Assembly (NCBI GenBank): GCA_005191425.1 | Contig: SUPR01000101.1 | Span: 1-11,564 of the forward strand | Length of the DNA stretch: 11,564 nt | Source: Candidatus Helarchaeota ASGARD archaeon Hel_GB_B | GTDB lineage: Archaea; Asgardarchaeota; Lokiarchaeia; Helarchaeales; HEL-GB-B | Direction of reading: 5' to 3' | In this document: positions 5,953-9,439 of the stretch, in pieces | Numbering within the stretch: position 1 is the stretch's first letter | Layout of the letters: every line of letters starts with the position of its first letter | Program-made: the position numbers and the translations under genes | Notes under the pieces: model-generated | The model's input: only the letters and a program-made list of their open reading frames with translations | Told to the model about the DNA's origin: nothing | Databases searched by the model: none

Positions 5953-6489
5953 ATGATGATAGACGACCAACAAGAATTAAATGATATTAAAAAAACATTA
6001 TTAGGGTCAATAAAAAAAGACCTCGATTACTTTTTGAAGCAAGATAGCGTTTTATTTTTTGCTTTAACTACTGATAAGGGACTAATAATCGAGAAATATT
6101 CTAAAAAAGAGATTGATGCGCGCTTAATTGGTGGTATTATCTCTAAAATATTAAATATTTCTAATTGGAGTATTTCAAAATTAGATGAAAATAGTAACCT
6201 TGATTCAATCGAAATATGTTATAAAACTGGAATTCTAATTATTAAACCAATTAACAAGAAGTTTGTGGTTTTTCTTTTATTAAAACGAATGGTCGATAAA
6301 AATAATATTTATTTATTTCTAAATTCACTGTCATTTCAGATTATTAGTTCGACAGGAGATTATTTGGAAGTACAAAAAGAATTTATTCAGATAGATAACT
6401 CCATAGCAAAATTAAAAGAACTAGTTCAGAGTATAGAAATTCCAAAATTGTCCGAGATAAAAAATTTGCTCAAATATATGAATGTATAA
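5953..6489 (+). CDS. Roadblock/LC7 (MglB/LAMTOR-like) domain protein with a C-terminal helical extension
   Basis: Helix, then VLFFALTTDKGLII (cf. the 'A.lvs.DGl.ia' pattern), helix DARLIGGIISKILNISNWSISKL, strands LDSIEICYKTGILIIKPINKKFVVFLL, closing helix, and about 45 extra helical residues. Confidence 0.75.
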   Translation: MMIDDQQELNDIKKTLLGSIKKDLDYFLKQDSVLFFALTTDKGLIIEKYSKKEIDARLIGGIISKILNISNWSISKLDENSNLDSIEICYKTGILIIKPINKKFVVFLLLKRMVDKNNIYLFLNSLSFQIISSTGDYLEVQKEFIQIDNSIAKLKELVQSIEIPKLSEIKNLLKYMNV

Positions 6490-6781
6490 ATTTATATCCA
6501 GAGTATTTTTAATTAATATTATATAATCTACATCATTTAAAAAAAATCTTCATTAATAACTAATTAAGAGAAATAAAAAATAAATAACAAATTTTATATA
6601 AACTATATAGTGAAGAATTAATTTAATTAAAATATCTAAATTCTACAGAAATTTACCAAAAAAATTTTTTAGAACACTCCAAATTGAAATATGTATCTAT
6701 TCATTTATATGATATAATTTAATAAATTTTTTAATAAGTTTTAAAAAAAATATTTGGAACTACATTTATAGGTAGAGTTCG

Positions 6782-8050
6782 TTGCTTAGAGAAATTTATA
6801 TTCTCAGAGGATCAGAAGTTCTTTTTTGGAGACAATATGGAAACTCATTAAAGTGGGAAGATATTGCACCTATATTTCTCTCGATCATAAAAACTTTAGA
6901 AAACGATACTTTTTCCAAAAAAGATACAAATTTTATGACTATTGGAAGATATAAAATTACATATATTTCATTTTTGGAATTAAATTTATTTTTTTTTATG
7001 ATAACTGACTTAACTGATAATGATAATGATTTGCAAGCTCAAATAAATGTTTTAAAAAAGGAATTTCTTGAGTTATTTGAGGAGATAATTCCTACAGTAA
7101 ATAATCCTGAAATTTTCGAGTCTTTTAATCCAATTGCTGATAAGATTCATAAAGATCTGCGCCCAAAAATTGCTTTGGTCGGATTTTCGGGGGTAGGGAA
7201 AACGACAATAACCCGATTAATTCGTGCTGAAGAGATACCTATGACACATGTTCCGACCTTAACTGGTGAAATTGTAACAGTAAAAATTGGAAAATTATTT
7301 TTTAATCTCTGGGATTTTGCGGGTCAAGAATCATTCAGCTTCTTATGGCCTGATTTTATTAAAGATTCTGATGCAGTCTTAATAGTTACTGATTCACAGC
7401 TAAAAAATATTGATGAATCAAAATTTTTTATTGACCTAATTAAAACAGAAGTCCCAAATGCTCGATGTGGTGTAATAGCAAATAAACAAGACCTCCCTAA
7501 TGCAATGCCACCCGAAGAAGTTTCTCGAATTTTTAACTTACCTGCATTTGGAATGATTGCTGTGGACACTAATAATAGGGCTAAAATGATAAAAATTATT
7601 GCAGAGATAATGGACATATCTGAGCAAATTTCTCCATTATTAAAGCCATTAATTGAGAGAGATAAAGAAATGGAAGCTGCTGAAAAGTCATTAAAGGAGG
7701 GTGACTTACTTTCAGCTGCTAACCACCTTACAGCAGTAGCAAATTTGTCATTTGAATTAGGTGATGATAGTGAAATTGGTACTGAGTTATTAAACAAGGC
7801 AAATTTATTACGACAGCATCTAGGGATTTCCACAGGGACTGATCTATCTTCATCAAAAAACATACCTTCCCGTGAGGAACAGCTGGAAATTCAGAAAATA
7901 AGGAAACAAATAGATTCAATTGAAACACAAATTGCCGATCTTGAACTACAAAGACAAAGAGGACTAATTTCTGAAGCTGAATATGGCGAGAAAACCGCCA
8001 ATTTAAAAAGAGAAAAAGAAGAATTAATTAAAAAACTTAAATTTCAATAA
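6782..8050 (+). CDS. Multidomain small GTPase: N-terminal longin-like domain, Arf/Ras-superfamily G domain, helical hairpin, C-terminal coiled-coil/SHOCT-like domain
   Basis: G1 GFSGVGKT (res 134-141, nt 7181-7204), G2 HVPT, G3 WDFAGQ, G4 NKQD. N-terminal beta-beta-alpha-beta-beta-beta-alpha-alpha pattern typical of longins. C-terminal LELQRQRGLISEAEYGEK. TTG start. Confidence 0.88.
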   Translation: MLREIYILRGSEVLFWRQYGNSLKWEDIAPIFLSIIKTLENDTFSKKDTNFMTIGRYKITYISFLELNLFFFMITDLTDNDNDLQAQINVLKKEFLELFEEIIPTVNNPEIFESFNPIADKIHKDLRPKIALVGFSGVGKTTITRLIRAEEIPMTHVPTLTGEIVTVKIGKLFFNLWDFAGQESFSFLWPDFIKDSDAVLIVTDSQLKNIDESKFFIDLIKTEVPNARCGVIANKQDLPNAMPPEEVSRIFNLPAFGMIAVDTNNRAKMIKIIAEIMDISEQISPLLKPLIERDKEMEAAEKSLKEGDLLSAANHLTAVANLSFELGDDSEIGTELLNKANLLRQHLGISTGTDLSSSKNIPSREEQLEIQKIRKQIDSIETQIADLELQRQRGLISEAEYGEKTANLKREKEELIKKLKFQ

Positions 8051-8276
8051 ATAAAAATATTTTATTGATGTTTTAAATAAAATAGATTTAATTATATATC
8101 AGCAAAATATATTTATTAGAGAAAAGATAAAGAAATATCATACTATATAAAAAAGTTTTATTTTTAATTACCAAAAATTTTCCAAATTTGTTATTAAAAT
8201 TTTTAATATTAAAAAATTAATTCTATATTTCAAAAAATTTACATAAATTTGAAAATTCGTTATTGTTTTTATCGAA

Positions 8277-8284
8277 TTTAAAAA
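8277..8284 (+). promoter_or_regulatory. Candidate TATA box (TTTAAAAA) for the 8312 gene
   Basis: 27 nt upstream of the ATG, within a 261-nt AT-rich intergenic region. Confidence 0.3.
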
Positions 8285-8311
8285 GTTAAATGAATTATGG
8301 TGTAAAATAAA

Positions 8312-9439
8312 ATGGCTGTCATTGGTTTTTTTATTTTTACATGGGATTCAAGGACAGGTACAGTACTTAAATCAAAATTTCCTACTGATATAAATTTGTC
8401 TAGTGATATTCTCATGAAAATTTATCAAGCTCATGCATATGAAGAGGGTGGTGGTTTTATCAGTTTAACTATTGGTGCATTAAATGTTGCAAGTTATTTA
8501 ATTGAAGACGAAAAATATTATTTCTCATTACTTTTAAGCATTGAGGAAGACCCTGACACTTATGAAGATGCATTAATTGATGCAGCAAAAGCTGTTATGA
8601 ACGACCTTTATGAAGACAGATATGTGGCATTATTACCGTCAATATTTCAAAGAATTTCAATCTATCCAAGACTTGAATATGAACAAAAGCTTGCAATGAT
8701 TTATTTAGACCTTGAAAAAAGATATATTTTAGACAGATTAGTAGACGATGGGAGTAGCACAGTTACTGAGCTGTTAGGGTGGTTAAAAGATAAGACAAAT
8801 AAAAAATTCATCGACATAGATTCTATATTATCCTCATTAGTCAAATTAGGATTAGTTAAAGTAGTTTCTGTTAAAGGACTGACAAGTGATTCTGTATTTT
8901 TAATAGGTGATATTTTTATCACTAGAATTCCTGCCACATCCAGCATAGTCCAAATAAAGCGGTATAATTTACCTGAAAAGATAGTTAATGACTATTTAGA
9001 TGAAACAAGGTCTTTTTTTGCAAAATATGTACCGTCAATTGAAGACAATGAGATAATTTGTAAAGCCATCGTTAATCCAGACGTATTTAAAATATTAAAA
9101 GTCCTTAGAATGACCCCAATGACTGCAAGAGGAATAGAGAAAATGAAACGTAAAGTTGAAGATTTAAATGAAGCAATTAAAATACTTTGGAATTCAGGGC
9201 TAATTAGGATACTCAAGGACAAGCAAGGAAATGAATATTATTTTCTAAAATCTGATATCAGAATTGAAAAATTCTTTCCTTCATATCTAATAGACACTAT
9301 TAGGAAAAGCTATAATAATCAAACTATAGCAAATCATGTATTAATTGAGCATTTAAATATACTCAAGGAAGAATACCTAAGTAATTATCACAAAAAATCA
9401 CAAATAGCATATGCAGTAGAGGAGGTAGAGTTCGAGTGA
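8312..9439 (+). CDS. Longin/uDENN-like N-terminal domain followed by two winged-helix-like repeats (375 aa)
   Basis: N-terminal FFIFTWDSRTGTVLKSKFP resembles the F-[DH]-x3-G-P-x5-P start of uDENN/NPR2-type longins. Two internal repeats: ILDRL..STVTEL..DIDSILSSLVKLGLVKV..VFLIGDIFI and ILKVL..MTARGI..DLNEAIKILWNSGLIRI..YFLKSDIRI. Confidence 0.7.
   Translation: MAVIGFFIFTWDSRTGTVLKSKFPTDINLSSDILMKIYQAHAYEEGGGFISLTIGALNVASYLIEDEKYYFSLLLSIEEDPDTYEDALIDAAKAVMNDLYEDRYVALLPSIFQRISIYPRLEYEQKLAMIYLDLEKRYILDRLVDDGSSTVTELLGWLKDKTNKKFIDIDSILSSLVKLGLVKVVSVKGLTSDSVFLIGDIFITRIPATSSIVQIKRYNLPEKIVNDYLDETRSFFAKYVPSIEDNEIICKAIVNPDVFKILKVLRMTPMTARGIEKMKRKVEDLNEAIKILWNSGLIRILKDKQGNEYYFLKSDIRIEKFFPSYLIDTIRKSYNNQTIANHVLIEHLNILKEEYLSNYHKKSQIAYAVEEVEFE

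Follow-up and report, generated by a model that had tools for sequence, protein, structure and literature searches.

Here we describe four adjacent genes on contig SUPR01000101.1 of the Asgard archaeon Candidatus Helarchaeota Hel_GB_B. The entire 11.6-kb contig (11,564 nt) is referred to as the window, and belongs to a 3.5-Mb genome that is 93.7% complete. The genes encode a Roadblock protein (P0001), a small GTPase with its own longin domain (P0002), a longin protein with two winged helices (P0003; LWW is the name used for proteins of this type) and the first part of a giant surface protein (P0004). The tightest partner of LWW is this downstream giant type-I surface protein, whose gene overlaps that of LWW by 4 nt, and the Rosetta-stone fusion of the two in related genomes is the strongest single piece of evidence. 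We think the chances about even that the three genes and the giant gene following them make up one functional module, a surface-protein-coupled longin GTPase switch with a Roadblock co-regulator. The folds of the proteins, the linkage of their genes and the fusions are matters of observation. The three open reading frames (ORFs) reported in a preliminary description of this DNA are all present on the + strand, with intergenic gaps of 292 nt (P0001-P0002) and 261 nt (P0002-P0003), and the public records of their homologs are assigned to Helarchaeota, Lokiarchaeota or Promethearchaeota. The genes are listed below.

5953-6489, + strand: P0001 Roadblock gene (178 aa)
6782-8050, + strand: P0002 GTPase gene (422 aa, TTG start)
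8312-9439, + strand: P0003 (LWW) gene (375 aa)
9436-11562, + strand: P0004 surface-protein gene (first 709 aa; the contig end cuts the gene)

The GTG start codon of P0004 overlaps the TGA stop codon of P0003 by 4 nt (GTGA), with a GGAGG sequence 10 nt upstream. The available part of P0004 contains an N-terminal signal/anchor helix, and its orthologs in loci L004 and L022 are type-I proteins of 2399 aa with a C-terminal transmembrane helix and a conserved cytoplasmic tail of ~140 aa. Of the 121 genomes sampled from the class, 114 encode LWW-family proteins, frequently with multiple copies. Thirty LWW copies with a family score of at least 400 bits were examined, from 20 fetched loci and two contigs of the organism's own genome. 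Twenty of them abut a giant type-I ORF of the same orientation, which may precede or follow LWW, and most of these pairs overlap or are spaced by 0-4 nt (19 of these giants have at least 1200 aa, and the twentieth is the copy in the window, cut by the contig end), seven are fused to a giant ORF, and three have no giant neighbor. The giants are all type I, with an N-terminal signal/anchor helix, 23-70 N-glycosylation sequons, and a single transmembrane helix ~100-150 aa before the end, followed by a conserved tail. The fused proteins consist of a signal peptide, ectodomain, transmembrane helix, ~100 aa and then a C-terminal LWW, which points to the cytoplasmic tail of the surface protein as the place where LWW acts. 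The coupled surface protein, mentioned in the preliminary description as a possible source of extracellular input, proved to be more strongly linked than any other component. In L013 and L014 (G053:C9:428000-466900), at least five genes encoding ~2650 aa each stand in tandem, and every one of them encodes a giant ectodomain and transmembrane helix fused to a C-terminal LWW.

The linkage of LWW to P0002-family GTPases was followed in loci fetched via LWW homologs regardless of GTPases, and such a GTPase lies within 6 kb in four of six, and just past the giant gene in a seventh. Class-wide match lists, compared by hand, give at least 23 genomes in three families in which LWW and a P0002-family GTPase lie within 6 kb of each other; since these genomes are related, they are not independent events. 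The arrangement differs between families: LWW and the GTPase are on the same strand in the window, the GTPase is divergent or downstream in the next family, and convergent between two LWWs in the largest, which argues for selection rather than inertia. In a phylogenetic tree, the GTPase of the window groups with the linked GTPases of the neighboring family (support 83/85); those linked in the largest family, 345 aa long, make up a clade of their own. The Roadblock gene is directly 5' of the GTPase gene in five loci from two families (the window, L004, L022, L005 and L008). Co-conservation of the genes, which had been put forward as a check on the module, therefore holds for the GTPase and LWW across three families despite rearrangement, and only partly for the Roadblock protein.

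Longins related to that of LWW also occur beside small GTPases. A stand-alone 126-129-aa homolog of the LWW longin (BLASTP E 1e-15) directly adjoins the GTPase gene in L001, L006, L008 and L009, and in the organism's own genome, where GTPases of this kind account for 41 ORFs, four of nine genes with an LWW-class longin adjoin a small GTPase gene. Other WD-type longin proteins of 193-335 aa are encoded in this genome beside other small GTPase genes (C150:23378-24915, C163:10817-12304 and C19:42453-44423), two of these pairs with a 4-nt overlap or spacing. A 182-199-aa phospholipase D (PLD)-like protein, with a PLDc_2 match in some copies, accompanies the module in L004 (18339-18908), L022 (10702-11283), L001 (16058-16606) and L006 (7171-7740), with its gene placed 3' of either the giant gene or the 126-aa longin gene. 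Given its place behind the giant gene in L004 and L022, its counterpart is probably located just past the end of the contig here.

The P0003 protein was modeled with AlphaFold2 using 22 homologs (predicted local distance difference test score, pLDDT, 90; predicted template modeling score, pTM, 0.84). Its two parts are as follows.

8312-8671, + strand: P0003 longin, residues 1-120 (AlphaFold2 pLDDT 90; Z 10-12 to solved longins; conservation counts)
8678-9439, + strand: two winged helices (residues ~123-206 and ~243-321) and C-terminal helices, residues 123-375 (AlphaFold2, ESM Atlas and Foldseek)

The longin half matches the solved longins of VAMP7, DENND1, NPRL2, Ykt6 and a Lokiarchaeal protein (VIA-align), all with Z scores of 10-12 that cannot separate NPRL2 from the other longins, the comparison covering mostly the longin half. 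The best whole-chain matches in Foldseek are NPRL3 and NPRL2 in the GATOR1 complex, with E 2e-4 to 1e-3 and a template modeling (TM) score of ~0.24, and in a shape search of the Atlas the first eukaryotic clusters are NPR2 (TM 0.33-0.39). Residues 119-369 match tandem winged helix-turn-helix (wHTH) proteins of the ArsR/SmtB/MarR type in the Atlas (TM 0.58-0.61 by row). Sequence searches are less informative: P0003 has no Pfam match at E<=1, a six-frame NPR2 search of the genome did not hit its gene (NPR3 was covered by the Pfam scan only), no IML1/DEPDC5 family member was found in the genome, and a search of PDB sequences with the LWW family profile brought up PH1932 alone, as a weak wHTH match (E 0.05), with no NPRL2, FLCN or SMCR8. 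The longin with tandem winged helices expected of the 375-aa protein is thus borne out. Its layout is the same as that of NPRL2/3, since these are described as a longin followed by repeated winged HTH domains (Levine et al., PMC3747258), and the fold searches agree with this description.

The most conserved part of LWW is the loop between strands 1 and 2 of the longin, W11-D12-x-R14-x-G16, followed by P24 (W11 in 19, D/N12 in 20, R14 in 19 and G16 in 21 of 22 sequences). Residues P24, H41, G48, N58 and S61 of the longin are invariant. The spacing from W to G equals that of W33-D34...G38-P39 in C9orf72, and G16 is followed by Ala or Thr in place of Pro. LWW loops 55-56 and 65-68, in which we tentatively place the NPRL2 arginine finger, lack a conserved Arg; the conserved Arg of LWW, R14, is instead located in the loop joining strands 1 and 2. 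A 2025 study also found these C9orf72 motifs, WD and GP, in FLCN/SMCR8-type longins of Asgard archaea (PMC12290439).

The P0002 protein combines a longin domain with an Arf-like G domain and a long tail, and its TTG start agrees with the MLREI start of its homologs. Its parts are as follows.

6782-7156, + strand: N-terminal longin, residues 1-125 (AlphaFold2 topology; conserved across several Asgard lineages)
7166-7612, + strand: Arf-like G domain, residues 129-277 (Pfam Arf, Foldseek and invariant motifs)
7181-7204, + strand: G1 motif GFSGVGKT, residues 134-141 (invariant)
7310-7327, + strand: G3 motif WDFAGQ, residues 177-182 (invariant)
7481-7492, + strand: G4 motif NKQD, residues 234-237 (invariant)
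7643-8050, + strand: tail, residues 288-422 (conserved three-helix segment 288-346, disordered linker, coiled coil and SHOCT-like end)

In the AlphaFold2 model (pLDDT 82), residues 1-125 have the longin topology beta-beta-alpha-beta-beta-beta-alpha-alpha and are followed by the G domain and then helices. The Pfam Arf family matches residues 125-255 with 72.3 bits, above the cut-off, compared with 22.3 bits for Gtr1_RagA (at its cut-off of 22), and the best Foldseek matches are Arl1, Arf1 and Arf6. The G1, G3 and G4 motifs are invariant across 26 homologs, including the WDFAGQ of switch II, in which Ala replaces the first Gly of the Arf WDxGGQ. The longin-fused small GTPase with intact G1, G3 and G4 is accordingly confirmed. 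In the model, the N-terminal amphipathic helix that the interswitch toggle releases in Arf proteins is not present, the N-terminus being filled by the 125-aa longin, nor is the C-terminal Roadblock domain of Rag proteins, only helices following residue 277. Residues 1-345 are ~50% identical in hundreds of Asgard proteins, and the tails beyond this conserved part range from none to more than 350 aa (total length 345 to >700 aa). No lipid-anchor motif was found in the P0002 tail. The end of the tail (window 7970-8047, RGLISEAEYGEKTANL...) resembles a SHOCT-type short C-terminal helix pair, with no match to Pfam SHOCT. GTPases of this kind have already been surveyed (PMC10933270; bioRxiv 10.1101/2020.10.19.343400), and longin-fused Asgard GTPases were placed in Rag-like or Arf-like groups (PMC10933270).

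The P0001 protein contains a divergent Roadblock domain, which is reached through its family and not by the single sequence (16.6 bits to Pfam Robl_LC7, under the cut-off of 23). Its domain is as follows.

~residues 10-135 of P0001, + strand: divergent Roadblock/LC7 domain (family profile and Atlas structure)

A word-indexed search with P0001 returned its own cluster only, and an exhaustive profile search was needed to reach the family. When 1.8 billion representative proteins were searched with a profile of three sequences, a small family of 164-180 aa emerged, and beyond this family the profile reached proteins of 119-127 aa that are clear Robl_LC7 or MAPKK1_Int members. Against solved structures, the profile of the 11-member family matches Myxococcus MglB over residues 2-125 (E 7.5e-6), and also dynein Roadblock and archaeal Roadblock structures; the ESM Atlas model aligns 128 residues with Robl_LC7 clusters (TM 0.83, normalized by the matched row). 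Membership in the Robl_LC7 profile via the family and the Atlas model uphold the Roadblock domain assigned earlier to the 5953-6489 product. P0001 is most likely a dimer. Its C-terminal helix, past the Roadblock core, ends in PPKLxxIKxLxxY, conserved in the family alignment. A C-terminal motif common to P0001 (PPKLSEIK..L) and the giant tail (MGxPP.....LIK) was considered and rejected, its E value being 0.1-1 in a set of 11.

A complex of P0002 (residues 1-285) with the P0003 longin (residues 1-132) was predicted with a score of 0.42, compared with 0.03 for the best control, with 100% agreement in contacts between runs and a partner pLDDT of at least 84. Of 80 solved complexes, 58 attain the mark for this score, as do 2 of 110 mismatched pairs, and values from the mark up to 0.60 comprise only 7 of the 80 solved complexes plus both of the mismatches that passed. 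The prediction weakly supports a contact between P0002 and the P0003 longin. It is a hint and not a demonstration, because many solved structures are longin dimers and the controls included no other longin. In this prediction, the heterodimer of the two longins proposed in the preliminary description passes weakly.

The physical contacts within the module, the direction of signaling, and which regulator would be the GTPase-activating protein (GAP) and which the guanine nucleotide exchange factor (GEF) are points that we infer. P0004 is a type-I, heavily glycosylatable surface protein, adhesin- or receptor-like and carrying FG-GAP repeats. Its conserved cytoplasmic tail would be held by P0003, a putative cytoplasmic adaptor built like NPRL2/NPRL3, whose longin (of the W-D-x-R-x-G class) would pair with the longin of the Arf-like P0002. 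The resulting longin dimer may be a platform of the kind used by longin and Roadblock regulators to bind small GTPases and regulate them as GAP or GEF, and the MglB-like P0001 would be a second regulator of P0002. The nucleotide state of P0002 would thereby be coupled to the surface protein: the switch might control the placement, clustering or turnover of the surface protein, or it might report the engagement of the surface protein to the cell interior. An archaeal transmembrane pathway linking a giant surface receptor or adhesin, by way of an NPRL2-like longin adaptor, with an Arf-like GTPase and its Roadblock regulator is a tentative proposal that we lean against at present. In our reading, the module is not a TORC1-type nutrient sensor.

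Several points weigh against a single functional module. Binding between P0001, P0002, P0003 and the tail, and its effect on GTP hydrolysis, are proposed from folds and linkage, and any two longins may be laid together by a predictor from their likeness to solved dimers, the controls containing no other longin. The Roadblock family of P0001 is small (19 matches at E<=0.001 among the 1.8 billion proteins) and is seen in two families only, and much of the class-wide synteny falls inside one family and is not independent. LWW-giant pairs have no P0002-family GTPase in reach in L002, L003, L013-L021 and contig C156 of the own genome, and two near-complete single-contig genomes have more than 0.5 Mb between LWW and the GTPase; proximity of the GTPase to LWW is therefore not obligatory. 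The gaps of 292 and 261 nt leave room for separate promoters. An alternative is that two independent modules are placed side by side without functional contact, one a Roadblock-GTPase polarity switch of the MglB/MglA type and the other a surface protein with its own adaptor. A Roadblock gene followed by a GTPase gene is a known self-sufficient pair (PMC3747258, PMC9481161), the best solved relatives of P0001 are MglB, many LWW-giant pairs lack a nearby GTPase, and the 261-nt gap permits a separate promoter between the two halves. Such a division is nevertheless rather unlikely, since P0002-family GTPases recur beside LWW in three families in differing orders, which is hard to explain by inheritance alone, a small homolog of the LWW longin is the immediate neighbor of the GTPase elsewhere, and LWW-class longins repeatedly adjoin GTPases in the own genome.

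The remaining explanations keep the GTPase and LWW together, or LWW and the giant gene, and assign them other functions. The longin and the Arf-like GTPase might be a biogenesis or sorting system that targets, inserts or positions the giant protein, in the manner of the SRX domain and SR-beta in the signal recognition particle (SRP) receptor. SRX-SR-beta is an established pair of a longin and an Arf-like GTPase (PMC3747258), the SRP receptor longin is among the fold matches to the P0003 longin (Z 9.9), P0002 has a weak match to Pfam SRPRB (E 0.009), and the partner, a membrane protein of 1200-2600 aa, is cargo-like. This seems improbable to us: the SRPRB match is far below its cut-off, there is no SRP54-type domain in the locus, and in the fusions LWW is made last, after the transmembrane helix, which suits a tail-bound adaptor better than a targeting factor. 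The preliminary description had read the cluster as a Rag/Ragulator/GATOR1-like module, and an archaeal nutrient-sensing counterpart would agree with the NPRL3, NPRL2 and NPR2 fold matches, with the longin and tandem-wHTH layout shared with NPRL2/3 (PMC3747258), with the adjacent Roadblock and GTPase genes, and with the NPRL2-like longins catalogued in Asgard archaea (bioRxiv 10.1101/2020.10.19.343400). Taken literally, the analogy does not survive, and such a counterpart is very improbable. P0002 has an Arf-like G domain without the Roadblock domain that follows it in Rag proteins, the window contains a single GTPase gene, the TM scores to NPRL2/3 are low (0.2-0.4), no IML1 (DEPDC5) match was found in the genome and no NPR2 match to P0003, the conserved partner is a surface protein and not a metabolic sensor, and a homolog of the PI3-kinase-type catalytic domain of mTOR is absent from Asgard archaea according to the survey preprint. 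We give the slimmest chance of all to P0003 being a ligand-sensing transcription factor, with a longin sensor and two wHTH domains, that controls the giant gene. The Atlas matches of residues 119-369 to ArsR/SmtB/MarR regulators, the weak profile match to the archaeal regulator PH1932 and an upstream element common to two of the genes would fit this role, but seven LWW copies are fused behind a transmembrane helix, which would hold them at the membrane, conservation peaks in the longin loop and not in a recognition helix, and tandem wHTH domains are also protein-binding modules in NPRL2/3 and ESCRT-II.

The proposed surface-coupled GTPase switch resembles several known systems in part. NPRL2/NPRL3 of GATOR1 (Npr2/Npr3 in yeast) is a longin GAP for RagA/B. 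P0003 shares with these proteins the N-terminal longin followed by repeated winged HTH domains (PMC3747258) and has them as best whole-chain fold matches, a small GTPase and a Roadblock protein are encoded adjacent to it, and the W-D-x-x-x-G loop of LWW lies between strands 1 and 2, the site of the WD/GP motifs in eukaryotic GAP longins (PMC12290439). It differs in having no NPR2/NPR3 sequence match and no DEPDC5 found with it, in its Arf-like partner GTPase with a longin of its own, in the replacement of the GP-motif Pro by Ala/Thr and the location of the conserved Arg in a different loop, and in being tied, and sometimes fused, to a giant surface protein.

In Myxococcus and Thermus, the Roadblock protein MglB forms a dimer that regulates the Ras-like polarity GTPase MglA. 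P0001 has MglB as its best solved relatives, with a similar length and a C-terminal helix past the Roadblock core, and its gene is directly 5' of the GTPase gene. Unlike MglA, P0002 is Arf-like, with a canonical DxxGQ and its own longin domain, and the neighborhood of P0001 includes a second longin regulator and a surface protein. The use of longin and Roadblock domain dimers as platforms for GTPases is a general rule (PMC3747258). An Asgard operon encoding a LAMTOR1-like Roadblock protein, a Rab-like GTPase and a DENN protein has been described (bioRxiv 10.1101/2020.10.19.343400), and this conserved neighborhood likewise brings a Roadblock protein and a small GTPase together with a candidate GEF/GAP that contains a longin; its GTPase is Rab-like rather than Arf-like with a fused longin, its regulator contains DENN rather than tandem winged helices, and no surface protein was reported there. 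The SRX domain of SR-alpha and SR-beta also present a longin bound to an Arf-like GTPase in a process concerning membrane proteins, whereas no SRP-type NG domain is present here and the longin is fused to the GTPase itself.

Asgard genomes encode dozens of small GTPases, longin proteins and Roadblock proteins. According to a structural survey of the cultured strain MK-D1, GTPases and such regulators do not as a rule share operons, and the genome does not reveal which of them are partners (PMC10933270). The module is an exception: for one of the many unassigned GTPases of Asgard archaea, it names two or three candidate regulators together with a membrane partner, all of which could be expressed and tested jointly. 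Earlier descriptions from Asgard archaea cover NPRL2-like longins, longin-fused GTPases and the Roadblock/Rab-like/DENN operon (bioRxiv 10.1101/2020.10.19.343400; PMC10933270; PMC12290439). A full-text literature search found no paper linking NPRL2-like longins or longin-fused GTPases to giant surface proteins, or describing the module. If the contacts hold, the longin-GAP/GEF logic of eukaryotic lysosomal signaling would be placed at the archaeal cell surface and tied to adhesion or cell-cell contact, with a bearing on models of archaeal host-partner interaction before eukaryotes. The transmembrane pathway tentatively proposed above, if true, would be a prokaryotic forerunner of receptor-coupled small-GTPase signaling and of the eukaryotic longin GAP complexes (GATOR1, folliculin and C9orf72-SMCR8).

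Short elements of the form TTWCCAAA are located upstream of the GTPase and LWW start codons.

6653-6660, + strand: TTACCAAA element, 129 nt 5' of the GTPase start (belongs with the pair at 8168-8186)
8168-8186, + strand: two TTWCCAAA elements, 144 and 133 nt 5' of the P0003 start

Their position is kept in L004 and L022 while the AT-rich spacers diverge, and they may be a shared regulatory site at about the genus level. They are absent from the loci of other families, and enrichment in the window is not significant (7 against 3.5 expected; 13 of 200 shuffles reach 7). No RNA dataset is listed for 5800-9600, the sequencing runs that contain the stretch being DNA from hydrothermal-vent and marine-sediment metagenomes.

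Three helical proteins (139-232 aa), two of them weakly alike (E 1e-4), and a polybasic, tail-anchored microprotein of 45 aa are encoded divergently from the Roadblock gene (window 3953-5789, - strand). The preliminary description saw in these a possible scaffold and membrane anchor. They were dropped as parts of the module because, among the loci compared, homologs were found only in L004 (about the same genus), and no clear paralogs were found in the own genome. In one family, a ~440-aa P-loop gene adjoining LWW (a RuBisCO large-subunit homolog) and a nearby ~210-aa gene (a methyltransferase) were likewise not counted as module parts and were taken as synteny by descent. The flanks of the module in relatives (L001:1-7709, L005:1-5688 and L008:237-5360) encode a VTT/DedA membrane protein and components of a ubiquitin system, including ThiF/E1, UQ_con/E2, JAB and VWA/Ssl1 with a RING-like finger. 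At the other end of the window (66-3872, - strand) is a gene for a family-B DNA polymerase of 1268 aa that carries an intein (Intein_splicing match at residues 678-1049; LAGLIDADG weak), and its ortholog in L004, 78% identical and 892 aa long, is without the insert.

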